Notes under the pieces: generated by a model
The model's database searches: none
Told to the model about the DNA's origin: nothing
Seen by the model: only the letters and a program-made list of their open reading frames with translations
Program-made: the position numbers and the translations under genes
NCBI GenBank assembly: GCA_041662745.1
Contig: JBAZRV010000005.1
Coordinates: 1 to 32,000, forward strand
DNA length: 32,000 bases
Direction of reading: 5' to 3'
From: Patescibacteria group bacterium
GTDB taxonomy: Bacteria > Patescibacteriota > Patescibacteriia > 2-01-FULL-39-33
Shown: piece by piece, positions 10,118 through 25,500 of the stretch
Layout: every line of letters starts with the position of its first letter
How positions within the stretch are numbered: position 1 is the first letter of the stretch

Positions 10118-10213
10118 CTTTTTTTACTTTATTCATAACTCAATACCCCCCTGTGGATAAGTGAAAATAATTATACTACGAAACGTTTCTAAATATTGCT
10201 ATCAATAGATCAG

Positions 10214-13254: not shown

Positions 13255-13977
13255 TTATAATCTTCTTTCCAAAAATTTTTTCTGATCTTCGACAAAAATC
13301 TTTTTATCTACATTATCCCAATCAAATTTCTTAAAAATTTCAATGGTTGTATCAAGAGCAATCTCATTTGTCAAATTACAAATTTGATCCCGCGAATATA
13401 CTTTTTTAATCAGAATTTTATCCTCCTTAAATTTACATATATATGCTCGGTTTGTTTCTCTTAAAAATATATCCCAAAAAAATAACATTCTGTTATTGAC
13501 TCCCACTAATTCAATAATAATTTCCAGTGAGTCAATATTTTCTATATTAGTTAATAATCTTTTAGAGAATTCCAAAATTTCTGTTATAGAATAAAGTGCT
13601 CCAATAATACTTAAAAATTTATCAACTTTTACCCCGTATTCGTCTTGATATTCCTTCACTTTTTGCGGGGATAATCTCAGATCTTCCCTCATGGAAAAAT
13701 AATGTACAAATTGTCCGGTATTATAAAATCTCCAATATTCATAAACTGGCCCCTCAGGCCAATCACAAAATGAGTCAACGCTGTTATTACTACTAGATAT
13801 AATACCGGTTTGACGATCTACGTGCGGGTAATCCCATCCCCGCAACGATACTCTACTTTTTTCAATAATTTTTTTACAATCAGATAGAGATTCAATTAAT
13901 TTATCATCATATTTATTTGGTCTAATAATAACCCTCCAATATCCCTTTAATTTAATTTTGTCTAATAATTCACTCAT
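13255..13977 (-). CDS. hypothetical protein, no recognised family; middle gene of the three-gene operon
   Basis: A 240-aa ORF whose ATG overlaps the upstream stop (ATGA at 13974-13977). Confidence 0.55.
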   Translation of the reverse strand: MSELLDKIKLKGYWRVIIRPNKYDDKLIESLSDCKKIIEKSRVSLRGWDYPHVDRQTGIISSSNNSVDSFCDWPEGPVYEYWRFYNTGQFVHYFSMREDLRLSPQKVKEYQDEYGVKVDKFLSIIGALYSITEILEFSKRLLTNIENIDSLEIIIELVGVNNRMLFFWDIFLRETNRAYICKFKEDKILIKKVYSRDQICNLTNEIALDTTIEIFKKFDWDNVDKKIFVEDQKKFLERRL

Positions 13978-14618
13978 AAATTATCTTTTATTAAATCAGT
14001 ATTAAATTTATCTGAATCTGTTTCAGTGTCCACATTTAATAAGTTAACACAAGGGAGTTTTTTTAATATATCTTCTTTTTTCTTTTGAACCATCCGATCT
14101 AATAATTCGCGCCACTCATGAATACTGGATATTTCCCTAGACTCAATCGGGGCTTTCGATCTGATATATATCGCATTCTTTCTTAACGCAATATTTTCAT
14201 AATGATTGCCCCCTTGCTTTTTAAACAGAGCAAAATCTGTACATACAGTGGGTTCAATTGATTCATGAATCTGTAAAATGATAAAGTTTTTAGATTCATC
14301 ATCAATTATTAAATTATCAGAAAAAATAGTAAACTCAATAATTGGGTCACAAAATCTTTTTATGAACCTCGCGATATCATCATAATTAAAAGATTGAAAA
14401 TCGCTATCAGTCATACCCGATAAACTAACGCTTCGGTCTTTTTCTTCTTTGACACCCAAAACAATCACGCCACCCTGATCATTATTAGCCATAGCCAACA
14501 TAGCTTTTAAAACGTTTATTTTCGTTTCGTAAGCATTCCAATTCAGTGATCCTTTATATTCAATGCTTTGTTCCTCATGACGACGTATTATGTAATTCGA
14601 AAATTCTTCATTAAACAT
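13974..14618 (-). CDS. Schlafen-like AlbA_2 (divergent AAA_4) domain protein
   Basis: SIEYKGSL...KAMLAMANNDQGGVIVLGVKE...FIILQIHESIEPTV...NAIYIRSKAPIESREISSIHEWRELL follows the AlbA_2 pattern (E-F-K ... A-F-A-N-x-x-G-G-x-I-x-I-G-V ... I-Y-I-R). Confidence 0.65.
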   Translation of the reverse strand: MFNEEFSNYIIRRHEEQSIEYKGSLNWNAYETKINVLKAMLAMANNDQGGVIVLGVKEEKDRSVSLSGMTDSDFQSFNYDDIARFIKRFCDPIIEFTIFSDNLIIDDESKNFIILQIHESIEPTVCTDFALFKKQGGNHYENIALRKNAIYIRSKAPIESREISSIHEWRELLDRMVQKKKEDILKKLPCVNLLNVDTETDSDKFNTDLIKDNL

Positions 14619-15530: not shown

Positions 15531-16880
15531 ATGAATGAAAATTCAAACCAAGCCCCAACGGGCTTAAAAATCGTGGAAGTTCCGATCACTGAGCTTCATG
15601 CTTCCGAGTATAACGCTCGGAAGCATTCCAAAGAACAGGCTAATCAGCTCAGGGAGTCGATTGAGCGATTCGGGTTAGTCGATCCGATTATCTGCAATAA
15701 TGCTCCAGAAAGGCAAAATATCGTCATTGGAGGCCACTTCAGGCTTGAGGTAGCCAAAGATCTCGGCTATGCCGAAGTTCCAGTCGTCTACGTTAATATC
15801 CCCAACATTGAGAAGGAAAAGGAATTGAATTTGCGTTTAAACAAGAACACCGGCGAATTCGATTTGGATCTGCTCGCTCAATTCGATGAATCCTTTCTGG
15901 CTGACATCGGGTTTGATAGCGAGGAATTGGATCAAATCTTCCCGACTGAAGAAAATATTGAAATGTTCGATTTGAAGAAAGAACTGGACAAATTAGGCAT
16001 TGGCGAGATTAAAGTCCAGAAAGGCGATATTTATGAGCTGAACGGTTCGAGGCTAATGTGCGGAGATTCCACTCTAGAAGCCGATGTGCTTGCGCTAATG
16101 GGCGATGAAAAAGCCACGATGTGCCTCACAGATCCGCCGTATATTTTAGATTATTTGAAAGGCAAGACAAAAAATCAAGATGGCATTACCGAAGGCTTTG
16201 GCGCTAAGAAAAATCGAGTGTATATCGGAACCGAGGTCTTGCCCGATAATTTCACGGAATTATGGATGAATAACGTCGCAAAAATTCAAAAGCCTGATTT
16301 TTCCATTATCGTTTTTGAGAATCCCAAAAACCTCAGGATAATCTGGAATGAACTCGAGAAGCACTGGAAATACCGCAATACGATTGTCTGGCATCTGCCG
16401 AACCGAGTCCAGGGATTTTCTTCCAAGTACAAGTTTTTCAATAAATCAGACATTGCTTTAGTCGGCACTGGCGGTGAAGTGGAATTGAATTTAGAAGACG
16501 AAACAGAGGAATTGTTCCAGCAGGAATACGAGAATGCCATCTATGCGACCTCAGGCAAGCCTCATTGGGAATCTTACGAAGCTGGCAAGAAAATCTGTCC
16601 GACTGATTTCATTGAGTTTAAAGCGGCTGATGAGAAGTCCTCTGGGCAAGGCATCATCTTCGGCACCAAGCCGATTGAGATCCTTATTCCCTACATCAAA
16701 GTTTTGACCAAACGAGGTGATTTGATTGTTGAAGTCTATGGTGGAAGCGGCAGTACCCTTATCGCGGCCATTAAGATGAACCGTCGCTGTTACCTGATGG
16801 AGAAACAGCCGATTTATGCCGAGGTCATCTTGAACCGCTGGGAAAGAGAAACTGGCAAGAAGCCAGTGAAGATTAACTAG
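15531..16880 (+). CDS. ParB-like nuclease domain fused to an N6-adenine/N4-cytosine DNA methyltransferase (beta class)
   Basis: The N-terminus (YNARKHSKEQANQLRESIERFGLVDPII...GGHFRLEVAK) is a ParB/Srx-type domain. DPPY (16131-16142) precedes the SAM-binding EVYGGSGSTLIAA, which is the order seen in beta-class N6_N4 MTases. No partner nuclease is obvious. Confidence 0.8.
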   Translation: MNENSNQAPTGLKIVEVPITELHASEYNARKHSKEQANQLRESIERFGLVDPIICNNAPERQNIVIGGHFRLEVAKDLGYAEVPVVYVNIPNIEKEKELNLRLNKNTGEFDLDLLAQFDESFLADIGFDSEELDQIFPTEENIEMFDLKKELDKLGIGEIKVQKGDIYELNGSRLMCGDSTLEADVLALMGDEKATMCLTDPPYILDYLKGKTKNQDGITEGFGAKKNRVYIGTEVLPDNFTELWMNNVAKIQKPDFSIIVFENPKNLRIIWNELEKHWKYRNTIVWHLPNRVQGFSSKYKFFNKSDIALVGTGGEVELNLEDETEELFQQEYENAIYATSGKPHWESYEAGKKICPTDFIEFKAADEKSSGQGIIFGTKPIEILIPYIKVLTKRGDLIVEVYGGSGSTLIAAIKMNRRCYLMEKQPIYAEVILNRWERETGKKPVKIN

Positions 16881-16896
16881 CACCTTTGTTAAACGT

Positions 16897-17481
16897 ATGA
16901 TTAAGAGTCCCACCAAAAAAAAGTTGCTCGCTGAATTGGAAAAAAACGGCAATGTCACCATTGCCTGTTTAAAGTCCGGAGTCAACCGAGCGACTTTCTA
17001 CCGGTGGAAGCAAGAGAGTAATGAGTTCAAGGAGAGAGCGGAACAAGCTGAACTATCCGGACGAGAAAATAACTGCGATATTGCCGAACAATCTTTGATG
17101 TTGAAAATCAAAGATAAAGATTTAGGAGCGATTAAATACCTGTTAAGCCATAACTCTCCAAGATATAAAGGCAAGGAAACTAGCATGGCGGTGATTATCC
17201 ACAAGAAGGAAATGCCTGAATCAGAATTTATTAGCATAGAGCAACCTGAAGTATATAATAGAGTTTGTCATGAATATGCAATTGAGCTTCAAGAAAAATA
17301 TAAGTATTTGGGAGAAAAATTACCAAACAAACCCAATGGATTACCGATAGAACTTGATGAACTGCCTCTTTATGAAACATACATTGAAGATTGGAAAGAA
17401 GAAAGAAGAAAGGAAAGGGTCGCAGCAGGACTGGAGCATGAACGACAGGTTATGCCATGGATCGCGCAGAAGGAAGATTAA
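16897..17481 (+). CDS. HTH protein, phage terminase-small-subunit-like
   Basis: NVTIACLKSGVNRATFYRWKQESNEFKERAEQAE is a typical N-terminal HTH of small-terminase / phage HTH proteins. The C-terminal half is acidic and helical. Confidence 0.5.
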   Translation: MIKSPTKKKLLAELEKNGNVTIACLKSGVNRATFYRWKQESNEFKERAEQAELSGRENNCDIAEQSLMLKIKDKDLGAIKYLLSHNSPRYKGKETSMAVIIHKKEMPESEFISIEQPEVYNRVCHEYAIELQEKYKYLGEKLPNKPNGLPIELDELPLYETYIEDWKEERRKERVAAGLEHERQVMPWIAQKED

Positions 17482-17484
17482 TGA

Positions 17485-18567
17485 TTATTCCAAATGGGTG
17501 CTGGCTTTTATAACCAGCAATATGTCATCGTAATTTTGCAAAAATTCCTGCGGTTCTATTTTGTAAGTATTTTCCAATAATTCATCTGCTGTCGGTTTAA
17601 GCTTTGATTTGGATATTTCGTTATAAAAAGCATTGAAATATTTGTCAAACACTTCTTTATCGGTATGATTCTTGAGCCAGCCGAATTTAATCAAAAATGT
17701 GCCGTCGGAATAGATTGAGAATGGCGAAATAGTCGAACTAAGCTTTTTGATTATTGGCGCAAACGAACCATTGGCATTACCAGTACCCCATTTTATCTTG
17801 TCAGTATTCGCTTTGAGATATTCATAAAGCTTAAATACTTTCTCTGCTTCCGCACCTAATTTTTCTTTCGCTTGAATAAAAAAACTTTCTTCATCCCAGA
17901 TTCTCCTTTGGTTAATAGTAGAAACAGACATGCCCTTTTTTACCTCTACGCCAAACAACTTGGGAATCATTATCTCGTACTGCTCGTACTTGTAATATTC
18001 CATTTGAACGGCATAGATATCGAAATGGCTATTCTGGTTGATATAGACAATCAGGTCTTTCAACCTGTCTTCAATCGAATCCATCAGAATAACGAATTTG
18101 ATATTGCCTTGCTGGAGGTTATTTTTAATGGCTTCCAGCATGTCAACTACCTGCTCATCGTCAATATTAAAAAATGCCTTGGCTTTCTCTTCAAAACTGA
18201 CTTTAAATTTATTACTAACCTCACTATTTATCTTAGCGATGAATTCGCTAAAGTCGCTATGGCGCCAAAGCGAAGCTCCGTAATCAAGGGCTTGGGCCAC
18301 GACTGTTCTTTTGTCGGGATTCTTGTAAAGCTTAGTTTCCACGACATAGATGTCGCCATCCTTGTCGATAGCCAAAGCATCGATGGGGCCAGACTCGGTC
18401 GAGAATTCCCTGGCGACAACAAATAGCTTCTTGTCTTCTTCGATTTCATAGACAGGAATGGACTCGGGGTTCTCATGGATATAATTCTGCAAATAGCCTT
18501 CTTTCTCAAAGATAGACTTATCAATCCTCTGAGCCTTTTTGCCGTCTTGAGAAATAATTATGGACAT
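17485..18567 (-). CDS. PD-(D/E)xK nuclease-fold protein (NucS/DUF91-like N-terminal domain) with an uncharacterised C-terminal domain
   Basis: GPIDALAIDKDGDIYVVETKLYKNPDKRTVVAQALDYGASLW contains the D...D-x(n)-E-x-K arrangement of NucS-like endonucleases. Confidence 0.55.
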   Translation of the reverse strand: MSIIISQDGKKAQRIDKSIFEKEGYLQNYIHENPESIPVYEIEEDKKLFVVAREFSTESGPIDALAIDKDGDIYVVETKLYKNPDKRTVVAQALDYGASLWRHSDFSEFIAKINSEVSNKFKVSFEEKAKAFFNIDDEQVVDMLEAIKNNLQQGNIKFVILMDSIEDRLKDLIVYINQNSHFDIYAVQMEYYKYEQYEIMIPKLFGVEVKKGMSVSTINQRRIWDEESFFIQAKEKLGAEAEKVFKLYEYLKANTDKIKWGTGNANGSFAPIIKKLSSTISPFSIYSDGTFLIKFGWLKNHTDKEVFDKYFNAFYNEISKSKLKPTADELLENTYKIEPQEFLQNYDDILLVIKASTHLE

Positions 18568-19286: not shown

Positions 19287-20612
19287 ATGGGACTAATAAG
19301 TGACAAGGAAATGGCGGTTTTAGGGCATACCAGGACGTTTGAGGCGGTCTTACCGGTAAAGTACTGTCTTTATGCGAGAAAGTCGACCGAGGACGACGAG
19401 AGGCAGGCTTTGAGCATCGAATCTCAGGTTAAAGAGATGCTGGAGCAAGCCCAAAAAGACAAACTGAATATTGCGGAAATAAAGAGAGAATCCCACTCAG
19501 CCAAAGACTCAGGTGAAAGGCCAGTATTCAATAAACTGATGAGGGAGATTAAGGAGGGAAAATTCGACGGCATCCTGACCTGGGCTCCAGATAGATTGAG
19601 CCGTAACGCTGGCGACTTGGGCAGTATCGTCGATTTGATGGACAGAGGCATGATCAAGGAGATAAGAACGCACGGCCAAACATTCATCAACTCCCCTAAT
19701 GAGAAATTCCTGCTGATGATTCTGTGTTCCCAAGCCAAATTAGAAAATGATAATAAGGGCGAGAATGTTAAAAGAGGATTGAGAGCCAAAGTGGAAATGG
19801 GCTGGAGGCCGGGCATGCCACCGCTCGGTTATCTTCACGACAAGAATGGCGACAAAGGCAAAAGAAGAGCTTTTACTGATCCCAAAAGAGCGCCGATCAT
19901 GAAGCAATTGTTTGATAAAGTTGCCTATGAGGGCTGGAGCGGTCGAGCCATATTCAAATGGCTCGATGAAATGGATTTCAGAACTAGATCGGGCAAGAAG
20001 ATGACCTTAAGCTCAATCTACCTCGTACTCAAAAATACTTACTACTATGGCTACTTTGAATATCCAGTGGGCAGCGGCAATTGGTATAAAGGCGGACACG
20101 AGCCGATTATAACAAAAGAAACTTTCGATGAAGCTCAAATACAACTCACGGTAGCGCCAAAATCCAAACCAGGCACCAAAGAATTCAGCTTCACTAAAAT
20201 GATAAAATGCGGAGCTTGCGGATCAGGTGTAACGGCAGAAGAGAAATACAAAAAACTGAGCGATGGCTCAGTCAAAAAATATATCTATTACCACTGCAGC
20301 AGATTCAATGATCTTAAATGCAAAGAATCCTACATCAGGGAAGAAAACTTAACTATTCAGCTAGTCAAATTAATAGATAAAATCGACATTAATCTTTTGA
20401 AAACCCAAAAGAGAATTAAGGATGAGATAGACCGCTATCAAAAATTCACTAAAAATATCCTAGGTGTAGATAACAAAATAAAGATGCCGGAGATAAATAT
20501 GAAAGACTATGCCAGATATGTTTTGACGGATGGCACTAGAGAAGAAAAAAGAGAACTGCTTAATTGCCTGGATTCTGAATTAAAATTGATGGGGCAGAAG
20601 ATTTATATTTAA
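19287..20612 (+). CDS. large serine recombinase (resolvase domain + recombinase domain + zinc ribbon)
   Basis: CLYARKSTEDDERQALSIESQ contains the Y-x-R-x-S-T nucleophile motif (Ser codon 19383-19385). ILTWAPDRLSRN is present. The zinc ribbon is CGACGSG...YYHCSRFNDLKC. Confidence 0.85.
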   Translation: MGLISDKEMAVLGHTRTFEAVLPVKYCLYARKSTEDDERQALSIESQVKEMLEQAQKDKLNIAEIKRESHSAKDSGERPVFNKLMREIKEGKFDGILTWAPDRLSRNAGDLGSIVDLMDRGMIKEIRTHGQTFINSPNEKFLLMILCSQAKLENDNKGENVKRGLRAKVEMGWRPGMPPLGYLHDKNGDKGKRRAFTDPKRAPIMKQLFDKVAYEGWSGRAIFKWLDEMDFRTRSGKKMTLSSIYLVLKNTYYYGYFEYPVGSGNWYKGGHEPIITKETFDEAQIQLTVAPKSKPGTKEFSFTKMIKCGACGSGVTAEEKYKKLSDGSVKKYIYYHCSRFNDLKCKESYIREENLTIQLVKLIDKIDINLLKTQKRIKDEIDRYQKFTKNILGVDNKIKMPEINMKDYARYVLTDGTREEKRELLNCLDSELKLMGQKIYI

Positions 20613-20699: not shown

Positions 20700-22169
20700 T
20701 TATGACGCTTTTAAAAAAATATATGTATTCCTCAATGCAGGAAAAATTCTTAACAGCTTATTAGAATTTTTGTCAAAATCAGGCAAATTTTTAATTGCAA
20801 TCAAAAAATACCTAGCAATTTTCTCTTCGTTAGAGAATAATTGATAAAAATCATTTTTTATGGACATCTTTGAACCATAAGAGCCAAACTTAGCAATAAA
20901 AATTAAATAATATCCAATAAACATAAAATTAGATGTGCCATAAACCTTTTCCTTTTCTAATGACAAAACTAATTCCATGTCAATTTCATTTGCTTTTAAT
21001 AATGCTCTTAAAATAAAAATTTTCTGGTATAAGTAAGGCGACGATTTCAGAACGCTTATTAATAATCGTTGAATATCAACCCTATCTATGTAATCCTCTA
21101 GATAATAACAAATTTCTTTTGAGTAGCATGGATCGAAAAGATTATTTTTTAAAATGCTTTCCAACGGGTGGCTTAAATGTAATCTTTTGAATTTATAGAT
21201 GCAAAACTTAAAAACGGTCTTATTAATTTTGTCAACTGCTCTATTTATTACAGCATCGTCCCACATTTCTTTCAGTTGATCATCAACGAAATCGCAATTA
21301 TCATCATCAAAATCGGACATTAAATAATTAACAAAATCCATAGTGTCAGAATAATTATTTTTATTGGTTGTATGTTTCGAATAATTAATTATCTCAGTTT
21401 TACCGCCATTGAGATGCAGATTTAATGGCCTCAGTAATTCCGTCAATTTGCTTAATGCCCTTCTAACGCCGATTTCATCATCCGAAAATACCCTTATATC
21501 ATCCACAAATCTATAATAATTAAATCCAGACTCGATCATGGACTGATCAACCTCGTATAAATATACATTTGCCAAAAATGAAGCACAATCATTGCCCTGG
21601 CATAATCCAATCTCATCTTCACACCAAGTATTTAAAAGATGGCTTAACTTATCTGAGATTTCTTTTTCTGTTCCTAAATATTTTAATATCTCGATGATTT
21701 TTTTGATTTTGATATGTTCAAAAAATGCGTTGATATCGGTTTTTAAAAGAAACCCATTCGGATTATTAATAAAATTATCATTTGATTTCTTTATAAAACT
21801 TTTCCAACTTTCAATATTTTCATTCCTATTCAAAAAATAATTTTTCTTTTTTGATATCCTATAACCGAAACTGATTTGGCTTGAAACTAGCAACTTATCA
21901 ATATCTTTGCTAAATCTGTTTAGTATTAATTGAAAATACAACCTATCTAGGATAGAAATGAAATATCCTGGCCTCAATATTAAATTCGGCTTCGGTATGT
22001 CTAATATCAATAAGCTATGAGGAGTATAATTATCAAAATCAATTTCATAAAAAATTGATGGATTATTAATATAATCACGATAATTAATGACATCAGGCCA
22101 AAAATCATCGTTTTCATCCTTACTGATATTGCTTACGGCTACATTAATTTCTTCCCTAGTGAAATTCAT
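20700..22169 (-). CDS. stand-alone reverse transcriptase of the Abi/UG (defence-associated) type with a helical C-terminal domain
   Basis: RT motifs appear in the expected order: IPKPNLILRPGYFISILDRLYFQLI (1), LKTDINAFFEHI (2/A), GLCQGNDCASFLANVYLYEVD (4/B), YYRFVDDIRVFS (5/C, with FVDD at 21498-21509), LHLNGGKTEI (6/D). About 230 aa of helical repeat-like sequence follow. There are no endonuclease, maturase or Cas domains. Confidence 0.8.
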   Translation of the reverse strand: MNFTREEINVAVSNISKDENDDFWPDVINYRDYINNPSIFYEIDFDNYTPHSLLILDIPKPNLILRPGYFISILDRLYFQLILNRFSKDIDKLLVSSQISFGYRISKKKNYFLNRNENIESWKSFIKKSNDNFINNPNGFLLKTDINAFFEHIKIKKIIEILKYLGTEKEISDKLSHLLNTWCEDEIGLCQGNDCASFLANVYLYEVDQSMIESGFNYYRFVDDIRVFSDDEIGVRRALSKLTELLRPLNLHLNGGKTEIINYSKHTTNKNNYSDTMDFVNYLMSDFDDDNCDFVDDQLKEMWDDAVINRAVDKINKTVFKFCIYKFKRLHLSHPLESILKNNLFDPCYSKEICYYLEDYIDRVDIQRLLISVLKSSPYLYQKIFILRALLKANEIDMELVLSLEKEKVYGTSNFMFIGYYLIFIAKFGSYGSKMSIKNDFYQLFSNEEKIARYFLIAIKNLPDFDKNSNKLLRIFPALRNTYIFLKAS

Positions 22170-22234: not shown

Positions 22235-22651
22235 TTACAATTTCGATACTAGCTTATTTTCGATTTTAGACATAGACTTATTAAAATTTCTTTGAGTTAA
22301 TTGGTGTTCCCAAATCCTCAGAACCTTCCATCCCATTCTTTTTAATTTTCTTCTATTCTTAACATCCCGATGAATATTAGCTTCAATTTTAGCGCGCCAA
22401 TACTTCTTTGGCAAGCGTTTTTTCGTATTGCTAAAATTGTAACCGTGCCAAAAATCGCCATCAATAAACACGGCGATTTTTTTGCGTGGCAGGGCGATAT
22501 CCGGCTTGCCCGGCGCCCTTTTATAATGCTTTTGGAAATATACGCCTCTTTTCCTTAATTCACCGAAAACTAAAAGCTCCACTTTGGTGTTCTTGCCCCT
22601 GATCTTAGACATTATCTCGCTTCTTTTCTCTTTTGAAAACACGTCTGCCAT
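22235..22651 (-). CDS. vsr: very-short-patch repair endonuclease
   Basis: MADVFSKEKRSEIMSKIRGKNTKVEL...GKPDIALPRKKIAVFIDGDFWHG...GWKVLRIWEHQL closely parallels E. coli Vsr (MADVHDKATRSKNMRAI...GRPDFVV...IFTHGCFWH...GWRVLIVWEC). Confidence 0.9.
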   Translation of the reverse strand: MADVFSKEKRSEIMSKIRGKNTKVELLVFGELRKRGVYFQKHYKRAPGKPDIALPRKKIAVFIDGDFWHGYNFSNTKKRLPKKYWRAKIEANIHRDVKNRRKLKRMGWKVLRIWEHQLTQRNFNKSMSKIENKLVSKL

Positions 22652-22690
22652 AATTCACTGTTGGGATTATTTTCTATTCATTTTCTAATA

Positions 22691-22699
22691 TGATATAAT
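22691..22699 (+). promoter_or_regulatory. extended -10 promoter for the LexA-methyltransferase gene
   Basis: TGATATAAT (TGnTATAAT) with only a weak -35 (TTTCTA, 22671-22676). It lies 50 nt upstream of the ATG at 22750. Confidence 0.5.
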
Positions 22700-22710
22700 A
22701 TTGTCATACA

Positions 22711-22726
22711 TGTGGATAACTCCACA
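22711..22726. promoter_or_regulatory. 16-bp perfect palindrome, candidate operator
   Basis: TGTGGA-TAAC-TCCACA lies between the -10 element and the start codon, inside the 98-bp divergent region shared with vsr. Its left half plus spacer (TGTGGATAA) is also a perfect DnaA-box 9-mer. Confidence 0.45.
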
Positions 22727-22749
22727 GGAATAAAAAATAACTAGAAAAT

Positions 22750-24300
22750 ATGCCCACACTTACTAAGAAACAAAAAAACGTTCTTGATTTTATTGAGGGC
22801 TATCGCGATAGGAAGCACTATTCCCCCTCCCATGAAGAGATCAAGAATCACTTCAAGCTATCTTCCGTTTCAACTGCGCATCATTATATCTCCAAGTTGC
22901 AGAAGGCCGGATATCTGAAAAAAGAAGATAACCAGCCGAGATCAATAAACCTCTGCTTCGAACCGGTAATCCAGATTGATCTATTGGGCAATATTACTGC
23001 CGGCCAGCCAATCGAAGCGATTGAATTAGGCAAGGAAACAATCGCTATTCCTAGCTATGGACTTAATAGGAATAGTAGCTATTACGCTCTCAAAGTCAAG
23101 GGCGACAGCATGATCGATGAAGGGATATTCGACGGCAGCATCGTAGTCATCAAGAAGCAATCAACTGCTGAAAACGGCCAGACCGTAGTCGCCGTGATAG
23201 ATGATAACGAGGCAACACTGAAAATGATATACCGCGAAAAGAATAAATTCCGCTTGCAGCCAGCCAACCAAAGCATGCTTCCCTTTTACCGCAAAGAAGT
23301 GGAAATCCGCGGGGTAGTGATAAAAATCATCAGGGATTTATATAAAGAAGAGCAGAAATTCAGAACTCTTGATCTATTCGCAGGCGTAGGTGGCATCAGG
23401 CTGGGATTTGAAAAAGCCGGTTTCGAGACCGTATTCGCTAATGACTTTGAAAAAGCCTGCGCAGATACTTATAACAAGAACTTCAAGACTTCAAAATTAG
23501 TAGTAGAGGATATTAGGAGAATCGGAATCGATGATCTGCCTGAATTCGACTTCCTGCTCGGCGGCTTTCCTTGCCAGGCATTCTCAATAGCTGGCTACCG
23601 CAAAGGATTCGAAGATGACAAAGGGCGGGGCAACCTATTCTTTGATGTCGCAAGGATAATAGAAACCAGAAGGCCGACAGGATTCCTAATGGAAAACGTC
23701 AAGAACCTTAAAAGCCATGATAACGGACGGACATTCAAAATCATCAAAGAAACCCTGGAAAACCTCGGCTATCATATCAAAGCCAGGGTTTTGAATAGCG
23801 TGGAGTACGGCAATATCCCCCAGAACCGTGAAAGGATTTACATCGCCGGATTCAGGGACAAAAGGCATTGCGATAATTTCGAATTCCCAAAGCCGGTGAA
23901 ACTGACAAACAAGGTTGCAGATCTTCTCGAAAAAAAAGTTGATGAAAAATATTATTACAATGGAAAGCCTCTTTACCAAAAGCTTAAGGATTTCGTGAAA
24001 GAAAAAAATAAAGTCTACCAATGGCGCCGCCAATACGTCCGTGAAAATAAAAAAGGCGTCTGTCCGACGCTGACTGCGAATATGGGGATGGGCGGCCATA
24101 ATGTTCCGATTATCAAGGATGACAAAGGCATTAGGAAGCTTACGCCGTTAGAATGTTTTAGGCTCCAGGGATTTCCAAAGAGCTTCGAGCTTCCAGCTAA
24201 TTTGGCTGATTCAGCTCTTTACAAGCAGGCCGGCAATTCAGTTACAGTTACAGTATTGGAAGCGGTAGGCAAGCAAATGATGCAGGCTGTCAGCGACTAA
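22750..24300 (+). CDS. fusion protein: LexA-type repressor (wHTH + S24 peptidase) joined to a DNA (cytosine-5) methyltransferase
   Basis: LexA part: the HTH SVSTAHHYISKLQKAGYL, Ala84-Gly85 in ITAGQP (22999-23004), GDSM with Ser120 (23107-23109), and ATLKM with Lys158. MTase part: DLFAGVGG (I), GGFPCQAFS (IV, Cys codon 23572-23574), ENVKNL (VI), QNRERIYI (VIII), QAGNSV (X). No stop codon or frameshift separates the two parts. Confidence 0.85.
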   Translation: MPTLTKKQKNVLDFIEGYRDRKHYSPSHEEIKNHFKLSSVSTAHHYISKLQKAGYLKKEDNQPRSINLCFEPVIQIDLLGNITAGQPIEAIELGKETIAIPSYGLNRNSSYYALKVKGDSMIDEGIFDGSIVVIKKQSTAENGQTVVAVIDDNEATLKMIYREKNKFRLQPANQSMLPFYRKEVEIRGVVIKIIRDLYKEEQKFRTLDLFAGVGGIRLGFEKAGFETVFANDFEKACADTYNKNFKTSKLVVEDIRRIGIDDLPEFDFLLGGFPCQAFSIAGYRKGFEDDKGRGNLFFDVARIIETRRPTGFLMENVKNLKSHDNGRTFKIIKETLENLGYHIKARVLNSVEYGNIPQNRERIYIAGFRDKRHCDNFEFPKPVKLTNKVADLLEKKVDEKYYYNGKPLYQKLKDFVKEKNKVYQWRRQYVRENKKGVCPTLTANMGMGGHNVPIIKDDKGIRKLTPLECFRLQGFPKSFELPANLADSALYKQAGNSVTVTVLEAVGKQMMQAVSD

Positions 24301-25481
24301 TCATCCTCGGATTCCCCAGACCTATCTTCCTTTACCTCCCCCGCAAATTCTTCATAAGATCCGACTTTAGTGAAGTCAATGTCATATTTTCCTTCTCCAA
24401 TTTTGTATATTACGACTGAGTCCAAGCCGATCTCCTCTAATTTGCCATAAGTCAAAAGATCTCTTTCTTTCAGATCCAGTATGTCTCGAAGAAGCCACTG
24501 GCCCAGTGCCGAATTAGGATTGCTCATCAACGCCTTTGATCCGTCCTGGCATACCTTGGCTGACATTTCAGCGCCATTCGGCAGGAGCAGGGTGAATGAA
24601 GTGTCGCGCGGAGGGAAAAATCCCGGATATTCAGAATGTATCAATGCCGGGATCGGAATATACACTTCATCAGGATTTCTCGGCCTGCCTAAGGCATTCC
24701 ATTGATTGAGTCCGCTCCTGGCCGGCACTTCTTTAATTCCTTTTTTTGATGAATAAAGCGGAAGAAAAACATGAGTAAGAGCCTTAATGGGCGCAAAAAC
24801 AACTTCCCGTTCAACTTTCCTGAAAACATTTTCAAGCGCATCAAAGGGATTCTCCAGTATTTTTACCGGAAAATCCAATAATGCATCGGATAAATTAAAC
24901 CTTTTGTATAATGTGCTCTTGGTCACATTGAAGGAGTACTCATTGCTGCCGTCGCTGAATGAAATCGCATTCGCATTCTTTCCTGATTTGATATTCCTTA
25001 TTTTTGATAAATTTACCAGATCCATTCCTGATTCATAAACCAAAATACCGCCCTTTTTCCGAGTAACGCAGTGATACATCATTTTTTCCAAACCGAATAT
25101 TCTTTTTGTCGCGTTAATCCGCTCATTCCTCAGCCCGGCTATCTTAATGACTTTTCCCTTATCATCCAAATTTCGGAATAAATTATGCTCGCTATTGAAT
25201 TCAGCGATCTTCTGCATAGTCGCTCCATTGCCTTCAAGGAAAGTTTTGATTCCGATTCCAACTTTATTCTTAGCCGCATCAGCTGAACAGTCGGTTCTGG
25301 ATAAATTGTCGGCATTAAAAGACTTGCAAAATAAATTTTCTGCAATCCTGTATTGGATATACGGCTCCTGGCTTTCTGAAAACAAACGGGACAACGATCC
25401 GATCGTACGGAGCATCTCCTGATAATATGATATGCTTTTCTTGTCCTGCTTATTCAGAAACATATAATGATATTTTCTCAC
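24297..25481 (-). CDS. putative type II restriction endonuclease partnering the C5 methyltransferase
   Basis: The call rests mainly on context: the gene converges on the MTase gene with a 4-nt overlap at the 3' ends (24297-24300). A candidate PD-(D/E)xK-like segment is TDCSADAAKNKVGIGIKTF. No family was recognised. The start may be the ATG at 25463 (MFLNK...), just after a promoter. Confidence 0.5.
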   Translation of the reverse strand: MRKYHYMFLNKQDKKSISYYQEMLRTIGSLSRLFSESQEPYIQYRIAENLFCKSFNADNLSRTDCSADAAKNKVGIGIKTFLEGNGATMQKIAEFNSEHNLFRNLDDKGKVIKIAGLRNERINATKRIFGLEKMMYHCVTRKKGGILVYESGMDLVNLSKIRNIKSGKNANAISFSDGSNEYSFNVTKSTLYKRFNLSDALLDFPVKILENPFDALENVFRKVEREVVFAPIKALTHVFLPLYSSKKGIKEVPARSGLNQWNALGRPRNPDEVYIPIPALIHSEYPGFFPPRDTSFTLLLPNGAEMSAKVCQDGSKALMSNPNSALGQWLLRDILDLKERDLLTYGKLEEIGLDSVVIYKIGEGKYDIDFTKVGSYEEFAGEVKEDRSGESEDD

Positions 25482-25500
25482 TTTACCGCTATTGTGTCAA
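25472..25500 (-). promoter_or_regulatory. promoter for the putative endonuclease gene (leaderless or very short leader)
   Basis: The minus strand reads TTGACA (25500-25495), a 17-nt spacer, then GAAAAT (25477-25472). The ATG at 25463 follows 8 nt after the -10 element. Confidence 0.45.

Follow-up and report, generated by a model that had tools for sequence, protein, structure and literature searches.

We analysed a stretch of 32,000 nucleotides from a Patescibacteria genome (contig JBAZRV010000005.1, positions 1 to 32,000; from here on, the window), where a gene located at 22750..24300 of the forward strand, here called lexA-dcm, is predicted to encode a bifunctional protein, both a repressor of the LexA type and a C5 DNA methyltransferase. 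The gene is a single uninterrupted open reading frame (ORF) of 516 codons starting with ATG, as it had been described in an earlier reading of this DNA made from its letters and translations (the sequence-only reading). It is flanked by a divergent vsr gene and by a convergent gene for a Type II restriction endonuclease (REase), and on the basis of the GC profile the locus lies within a low-GC island. At least 120 clusters of homologs share this architecture.

The Pfam search bore out the three-domain order proposed by the sequence-only reading. The LexA winged helix-turn-helix (HTH) domain covers residues 1-64 (22750..22941, forward strand, as all the parts of the fusion; PF01726 LexA_DNA_bind, 50.2 bits), the Peptidase S24 catalytic and dimerisation domain covers residues 78-191 (22981..23322; PF00717, 97.6 bits), and the M.HhaI-like C5 methyltransferase domain covers residues 204-511 (23359..24282; PF00145 DNA_methylase, 315.8 bits), with a match spanning positions 1-323 of the 324 of the profile. 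Among the NCBIfam models, the lexA equivalog TIGR00498 scored 167.1 bits (cutoff, 110.95), with residues 1-196 aligned to model positions 1-201 of 203, and the dcm model TIGR00675 scored 344.5 bits (cutoff, 100.65). The methylase part was also matched by PADLOC MTase_II (E=1e-125). The LexA half aligns at full length with the LexA proteins of T. maritima (3k2z, residues 4-196 to 3-195) and E. coli (1jhh, residues 1-195 to 1-197), and the methylase half is nearest to M.HhaI (213 bits).

Every LexA and C5 motif that had been quoted from the sequence was found in its place. The predicted self-cleavage bond, Ala84-Gly85 within ITAGQP, is encoded at 22999..23004, the codons of the S24 dyad are at 23107-23109 (Ser120, in GDSM) and 23221-23223 (Lys158, in ATLKM), and the recognition helix of the LexA domain reads STAHHYISKL. 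In the methylase half, DLFAGVGG, GGFPCQAFS, ENVKNL, QNRERIYI and QAGNSV represent motifs I, IV, VI, VIII and X, and the predicted catalytic Cys275 of GGFPCQAFS is encoded at 23572-23574. The AlphaFold2 (AF2) model consists of independently folded modules, between which the predicted local distance difference test score (pLDDT) falls below 50 only at residues 197-200 (23338..23349), a short flexible linker at the LexA/methylase junction. Sequence inspection found no in-frame Met near this junction that could serve as an internal start for a free methylase. Compared with the features that define a LexA, the fusion has the winged HTH, the S24 domain with its Ser/Lys dyad, the Ala-Gly bond and a full-length score at equivalog level; instead of a stand-alone protein of ~200 aa, it is a protein of 516 aa with a methylase attached.

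Then, we evaluated if other proteins present the same domain order. A database search retrieved all three domains in at least 120 clusters (at the 90% identity level), 68-100% identical to the fusion and coming from JGI, ENA, NCBI and Logan assemblies, with contigs of up to 1.08 Mb. In a separate, exhaustive search among 1.84 billion cluster representatives, nearly all of the ~65 nearest clusters consist of long proteins that reach 890 aa and have LexA at residues 2-197, and ordinary LexAs of 200 aa turn up only below ~48% identity. The LexA/methylase junction is conserved, and both the LexA half and the methylase half are under purifying selection. Among 119 close homologs, the cleavage Ala is present in 117, while the Gly, the Ser and the Lys are each present in all 119. 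Database labels for these relatives are inconsistent, naming LexA in some cases and Dcm in others.

The LexA half alone was scanned against GTDB, using one genome per species. This gave at least 567 relatives, of which the best 80 were analysed: all of them come from different assemblies (distinct whole-genome shotgun prefixes), nearly all are from Patescibacteria, and ~70 are long fusions of 460-627 aa. We compared the 76 complete proteins, that is, the window fusion and 75 proteins from these best 80 loci. LexA_DNA_bind and S24 are present in 76/76, whereas the C-terminal partners are N6_N4_Mtase (39), C5 DNA_methylase (20), D12 adenine methylase (12) and Eco57I/N6_Mtase-type (2-3). The overall identity ranges between 28% and 73%, and Ala84, Gly85, Ser120 and Lys158 are among just 15 invariant columns. 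As these residues are invariant across four methylase partners, selection seems to act on proteolysis itself, beyond fold or dimerisation. Judging from these profile matches, the LexA-methylase fusion is no one-off: it is a large Patescibacteria family that includes at least four methylase families. Of 80 hits on viral contigs, just two belong to close relatives, and one of these two is a LexA-N4/N6 methylase; on this basis we rejected a phage origin, and the LexA-methylase is mainly a cellular and island feature.

The upstream region of lexA-dcm contains a promoter with two candidate LexA operators. The first, O1 (22671..22687, forward strand), is a direct repeat with an 11-bp period, TTTCTATTCATTTTCTA, lying over the -35 and the spacer of the promoter, whose extended -10, TGATATAAT, is at 22691..22699 on the same strand. 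The second, O2 (22731..22747, reverse strand), is an inverted copy, TTTCTAGTTATTTTTTA, with one mismatch, located just before the start codon; perfect inverted copies occur at the same place in the related loci L001 and L006. O1 is the sole exact operator match in the 32-kb window. When 87 upstream regions were aligned, a direct repeat with this 11-bp period appeared right beside the -10 box, and the position of the operator relative to the -10 is the same in nearly all related loci. In total, the operator pattern was found 72 times in the own promoters of the related genes vs 11 times elsewhere in 854 kb. We thus have computational support for O1 and O2 as candidate operators through which lexA-dcm would regulate itself. 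The sequence-only reading had already proposed the LexA part as the controller of the system, and this proposal is strengthened by the conserved operator and by the invariance of the cleavage and catalytic residues.

The operator is of different classes in different loci. The class TTCGGT-N5-TTCGGT was found in ~45 loci, including those of housekeeping-type stand-alone LexAs, and the class TTCTA-N6-TTCTA in 30 loci, window included; further classes are TTCGA, TTCGC and TTCGT. The window protein uses the TTCTA class, unlike all the housekeeping-type LexAs seen, and for the housekeeping-type TTCGG operator the 32-kb window contains chance-level matches only. The class follows the residue after STxH in the recognition helix: an aromatic residue or His goes with TTCTA in 28/28 cases, and Glu or Gln goes with TTCGG in 32/34. 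Since both operator classes occur within each methylase class, this covariation does not go back to a single inherited event. Housekeeping-type LexAs of the lineage use the 11-bp-period repeat as well, and one of them is followed by an operator and then by the gene of a Y-family polymerase. Direct-repeat motifs have evolved several times in LexA (PMC7739468, citing a Patescibacteria study).

Besides the own promoter, just one site in the window carries the operator core. It is located at 520-536 on the reverse strand, GTTCTATTCATTTTCTC, and has two mismatches, with a 15-nt core, TTCTATTCATTTTCT, identical to that of O1; it overlaps the ribosome-binding site and the ATG (526) of a family-2 glycosyltransferase gene. 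The LexA-methylase might have a second target here, or the resemblance may be fortuitous. Two other loci, L092 (an IMG/VR viral contig) and L024, show a third arrangement, with an inverted TTCGA-class repeat downstream of the -10, TATAATCGAAAATGAATCGAAAG; in L092 it precedes a LexA-N6_N4 methylase. Furthermore, two Gemmatimonadetes metagenome-assembled genomes (MAGs; L083 and L089) encode stand-alone LexAs with a tandem TTCGGT-N5-TTCGG just upstream of the likely true start, from which the direct-repeat LexA box extends beyond the candidate phyla radiation (CPR).

A palindrome at 22711-22726, between O1 and O2, had been indicated by the sequence-only reading as the LexA binding site. Our results do not support this indication, and we rejected the palindrome as operator: its right half is not conserved even in a relative that is 78% identical (L001), and while the window contains the palindrome only once, one or more matches with two mismatches arise in 50 of 100 shuffles. 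Its left half, TGTGGATAA (22711..22719, forward strand), is instead a separate DnaA-box-like element, independent of the LexA helix class; it corresponds to the DnaA-box consensus (TTATCCACA) read on the other strand. Upstream regions totalling 12.9 kb hold 44 copies of the element, vs 20 copies in the remaining 842 kb of locus sequence, an enrichment of ~144-fold. It is present upstream in 43/87 loci; it occurs in 47/75 fused genes and in both stand-alone LexAs linked to restriction-modification (R-M), and is absent from the six housekeeping-type promoters. Its orientation is mostly one way, and its usual place is 1-16 nt upstream of the operator. In the window there are three copies (22711-22719; 10152-10160, forward strand; 17195-17203, reverse strand) vs 0.24 expected; the copy at 10152 lies just downstream of a TATAAT and upstream of an Ice_binding gene. 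As the element does not vary with the helix class, a different and conserved factor is implied, and DnaA would be the obvious candidate.

Downstream of lexA-dcm lies a gene for a Type II REase of the NgoFVII/NgoAVII type (24297..25463, reverse strand; RE_NgoFVII_C), convergent with the fusion and overlapping the methylase stop codon by 4 nt. The assignment is based on a full-length match to PADLOC REase_II (E=1e-103) and on a family of 4249 homologs, which NCBI names NgoFVII family. The predicted structure matches R.NgoAVII (4rct/4rdm), with a TM score of ~0.7 for the B3 DNA-binding domain and a poor whole-chain root-mean-square deviation. For the N-terminal half, the structure match assigned no nuclease fold (phospholipase D or other), and the PDB sequence search was empty. 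The family consensus MFLxxQxK places the start at ATG 25463, giving a protein of 388 aa; the ORF list (GTG 25481) and the JGI call (362 aa) disagree. A promoter-like site (TTGACA, 17 nt, TG-n-GAAAAT) is located at 25472..25500 on the reverse strand, and no LexA operator precedes the gene. With just 8 nt between the end of its -10 and ATG 25463, the REase transcript may have little or no leader. Between 24297 and 25622 there is no ORF for a small Xre-type HTH protein (C-protein) upstream of the REase.

The lexA-dcm gene therefore adjoins a putative cognate REase, the adjacency by which a Type II R-M system is recognized, and the R-M system with vsr anticipated by the sequence-only reading finds its two companions in the profile matches. 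The predicted specificity of the methylase and the REase is GCNGC/GCSGC/GCGC-like. The pairing with an NgoFVII-type REase recurs in L029 and L069. More generally, most fusions have a Type II REase gene directly downstream, and in 54/68 fusion loci the gene after the fusion is convergent, often with abutting or overlapping stop codons. These downstream neighbours include MvaI/BcnI (10), Bsp6I (8), EndoVII/His-Me (5), TaqI (3), NgoFVII_C (3), BsaWI (2) and PDDEXK_5 (2), together with AlwI, BglII, MutH-like and HNH nucleases and second methylases.

On the other side, the divergent vsr gene (22235..22651, reverse strand; PF03852; TIGR00632, 109.7 bits) encodes a very-short-patch T:G mismatch endonuclease. 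A divergent vsr is also found in the C5-type fusions L001, L016, L036 and L069, and in L006. Downstream of vsr there is a reverse transcriptase (RT) of the UG21/UG32 type of defence-associated RTs (DRT; 20700..22169, reverse strand; PADLOC RT_UG21, E=4.7e-61). It had been considered part of the unit; we rejected it as an integral partner, as no RT homolog adjoins the other fusions. A large serine recombinase (19287..20612, forward strand; Pfam Resolvase, Recombinase and Zn_ribbon_recom) marks the edge of the low-GC island, and close homologs of it flank the LexA-methylase cassettes of L062, L012, L032, L080 and L063. The island looks like a mobile, low-GC segment in a Patescibacteria genome. 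Between ~12700 and 20612 it also holds an SLFN/AlbA_2 protein (13974-14618), a fusion of ParB_N with an N6_N4 methylase (15531-16880) and a PDC-S11-like candidate defence protein (17485-18567). No SOS genes were found in the 32-kb window.

Some related loci differ in their organization. Among the unfused relatives, L027 has an operon of LexA, an N6_N4 methylase and R.TdeIII, L088 has a LexA beside a convergent Mrr Type IV REase, and L091 has a LexA followed by an operator and a Y-family polymerase, a canonical SOS layout. Three contigs with P0121 (L006, L007 and L008) encode a stand-alone LexA of 198 aa that shares the vsr(-RT) surroundings and is 77% identical to the N-terminal half of the window protein. 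Behind it come a NOV_C protein, a small ORF and, in the same direction, a homolog of the window REase (E=8e-96). No methylase gene is present on these contigs, and it looks as if the locus had either lost its methylase or belonged to another system governed by this controller. Finally, in L001/L002 and L004/L005 the partner of a C5-type LexA-methylase is a PDDEXK_5 REase accompanied by a small HTH_3 gene (C-protein-like), which points to two separate controllers, one on the methylase and one on the REase.

Taken together, we consider it fairly probable that lexA-dcm encodes a damage-sensing LexA-methylase, which would repress its own gene through O1/O2 and, once cleaved upon RecA stimulation, allow the induction of the methylase. 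The fusion would be the modification subunit of a Type II system, together with the convergent NgoFVII/NgoAVII-type REase and the divergent Vsr. By dimerising through the S24 domain and binding O1/O2, it would repress its own transcription, and probably that of the divergent vsr-RT unit through O1; this repression would hold the methylase at a set level, as in the methylase-repressors of the SsoII/Ecl18kI type. RecA filaments on single-stranded DNA, formed upon UV, replication stress, phage infection or breaks made by the cognate REase, could trigger self-cleavage at Ala84-Gly85, freeing the DNA-binding domain from the S24-methylase fragment and opening the promoter. The supply of methylase (and Vsr) would then rise just when unmethylated sites are arising from repair and recombination; Type II systems would in this way have, at the level of transcription, a counterpart of damage-induced restriction alleviation. 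A second input, linked to replication, may come from the adjacent DnaA-box-like element. The REase gene is served by a separate promoter-like site that lacks an operator.

Several points weigh against this mechanism. We infer self-cleavage, RecA stimulation, operator binding and regulation in the fusion from its sequence. The cleavage fragments of E. coli LexA are degraded; if the same holds here, the S24-methylase fragment might be destabilised, with the opposite outcome. The only promoter-like site of vsr overlaps O1 with a weak match to the consensus (9/12), which makes a co-repression of the vsr-RT unit plausible, if weakly so. The association between operator class and helix residue (28/0 vs 1/32, Fisher p=1.5e-16) comes from a test that ignores phylogeny. 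In addition, the view of the source genome in which a second LexA or an SOS regulon could be seen is the 32-kb window only.

The same observations have to be weighed under other explanations. That the gene is an artefact, i.e., a chimeric join or a frameshift merging lexA with a neighbouring dcm, could be suspected from the metagenome-derived sequence and the unusual architecture; we rejected it as practically negligible, because the same fusion, with a conserved junction and purifying selection, recurs in the clusters of four independent data sources, many of them on long contigs, and in ~70 GTDB species genomes. A simpler biological scenario is that the LexA module works as a DNA-binding and dimerisation autorepressor only, with cleavage unused physiologically and an R-M system insensitive to damage. 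Protease-free fusions between methylase and repressor are established (PMC12707154), and simple autoregulation would suffice for the layout of the window, as the operator lies on the own promoter and only the site at 520-536, with its two mismatches, shares the core in 32 kb. However, the invariance of the Ala-Gly, Ser and Lys residues in 76 proteins of 28-73% identity joined to four methylase partners speaks against this scenario, and we regard it as unlikely.

It could also be that the fusion is the sole LexA of the organism, a global SOS repressor with its main role in the SOS regulon and not in R-M. This would fit with the TIGR00498 equivalog cutoff being exceeded, with many fused LexAs sharing the TTCGG operator class with the housekeeping LexAs, and with the fact that no genome appears twice among the best 80 of at least 567 LexA loci; the lack of a second LexA is weak evidence, since it comes from the best 80 loci only and the MAGs are incomplete. 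On the other hand, the window protein belongs to the TTCTA class and not to that of the housekeeping-type LexAs seen, a single further core site and no SOS gene are found nearby, the gene lies in a low-GC island beside a serine recombinase, the partner REases and methylases vary freely, and the phylum does have stand-alone LexAs in core contexts, so that a role as sole LexA seems distinctly unlikely. The last scenario is a damage-triggered suicide, comparable to abortive infection: cleavage would expose degrons, the S24-methylase fragment would be degraded, methylation would fall and a constitutive REase would kill the cell. The strong promoter-like site of the REase without operator is consistent with this, and all the methylase must come from the cleavable fusion, because there is no internal start. 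Moreover, I-T/A-A would be the terminus of the N-terminal fragment, similar to the E. coli LexA fragment end that ClpXP recognises. Nevertheless, cleavage would simultaneously derepress synthesis, the methylase would remain joined to a folded S24 domain according to the AF2 model, existing methylation lasts until replication, and a co-regulated Vsr repair gene suits protection better; we hold this scenario to be quite improbable.

Returning to the damage-sensing LexA-methylase, we propose a broader picture, which in our opinion is possible while falling a little short of probable: a portable cassette, made of the DnaA-box-like element, the direct-repeat operator and a self-cleaving LexA, may have been fused to at least four unrelated methylase families in Patescibacteria and a few neighbouring lineages, coupling self-protection to RecA-sensed damage and possibly to replication. 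The repeated diversification of operators and helices (TTCGG, TTCTA, TTCGA, TTCGC, TTCGT) would make sense if cross-talk has to be avoided among co-resident systems and with the host SOS LexA.

Dual-function methylase-repressors are known, among them M.MspI and M.ScrFIA. For the C5 methylases M.SsoII, M.Ecl18kI and M.EcoRII, the N-terminal DNA-binding domain autoregulates the own promoter (PMC12707154). The fusion resembles the SsoII/Ecl18kI type in having an N-terminal DNA-binding domain on a C5 methylase and a candidate operator on its own promoter. It differs in that, instead of a short HTH of ~70-100 aa, it carries a LexA of 196 residues with winged HTH and S24, told apart by the Pfam and NCBIfam profiles; in that the operator is a direct and not an inverted repeat; and in that the module is predicted to be severable by a DNA-damage signal and is also joined to N4/N6, D12 and Eco57I-type methylases. 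With canonical LexA it shares the domain order, the A84-G85/S120/K158 spacing, the equivalog score and, as a candidate, an own-promoter operator, whose 11-bp-period repeat is also that of the housekeeping LexAs of the lineage; the fusion to a methylase, the location in a mobile R-M island, the TTCTA instead of the TTCGG class and the lack of SOS genes and of further strong operators in the surrounding 32 kb set it apart.

A likeness exists also with C proteins, as dedicated factors for the timing or level of R-M, and the unfused LexA-methylase-REase operon of L027 resembles a C-M-R operon. C proteins, however, are Xre-type HTH activator-repressors of ~80 aa which usually control the REase, while here a LexA with a protease would control the methylase. 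In Type I systems, damage-induced restriction alleviation occurs by ClpXP degradation of HsdR (PMC12707154). The proposed purpose would be the same, i.e., the shielding of unmethylated repair and recombination DNA from the own restriction enzyme; Type I alleviation acts post-translationally on the restriction subunit, whereas the fusion is predicted to induce methylase transcription through a built-in SOS sensor. Another parallel is found in CapH/CapP of the cyclic-oligonucleotide-based anti-phage signaling systems (CBASS) and in pairs of the ImmR/ImmA type, where DNA damage leads to the proteolytic inactivation of a repressor that controls a defence locus. These are pairs of an HTH protein and a metallopeptidase acting in trans, while in the fusion an S24 autopeptidase is in cis on the enzyme. 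The LexA-methylase fusion was not found in the literature searched, a search that did not cover the Sanchez-Osuna 2017 Patescibacteria SOS study, and a comprehensive R-M review of 2025 makes no mention of LexA (PMC12707154). The novelty suggested by the sequence-only reading thus held in part: no publication describing the fusion was found, while the window protein is not singular but one member of a large Patescibacteria family.

R-M systems become toxic when the balance between methylase and nuclease slips, and the safeguards include C proteins, methylase-repressors and Type I proteolytic alleviation. If the proposed mechanism is true, the LexA-methylase would add a direct, transcription-level link from DNA damage to self-protection in Type II systems, with a design that appears dominant in a huge and little-studied part of the bacterial tree (~70 of the best 80 LexA relatives). 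New annotations would be needed for hundreds of proteins that are now called "transcriptional repressor LexA" in some cases and "DNA (cytosine-5)-methyltransferase 1" in others, and reconstructions of SOS regulons in Patescibacteria must distinguish the housekeeping repressor from LexA paralogs linked to R-M. The family also supplies matched pairs of operators and recognition helices for the study of how LexA specificity evolves.

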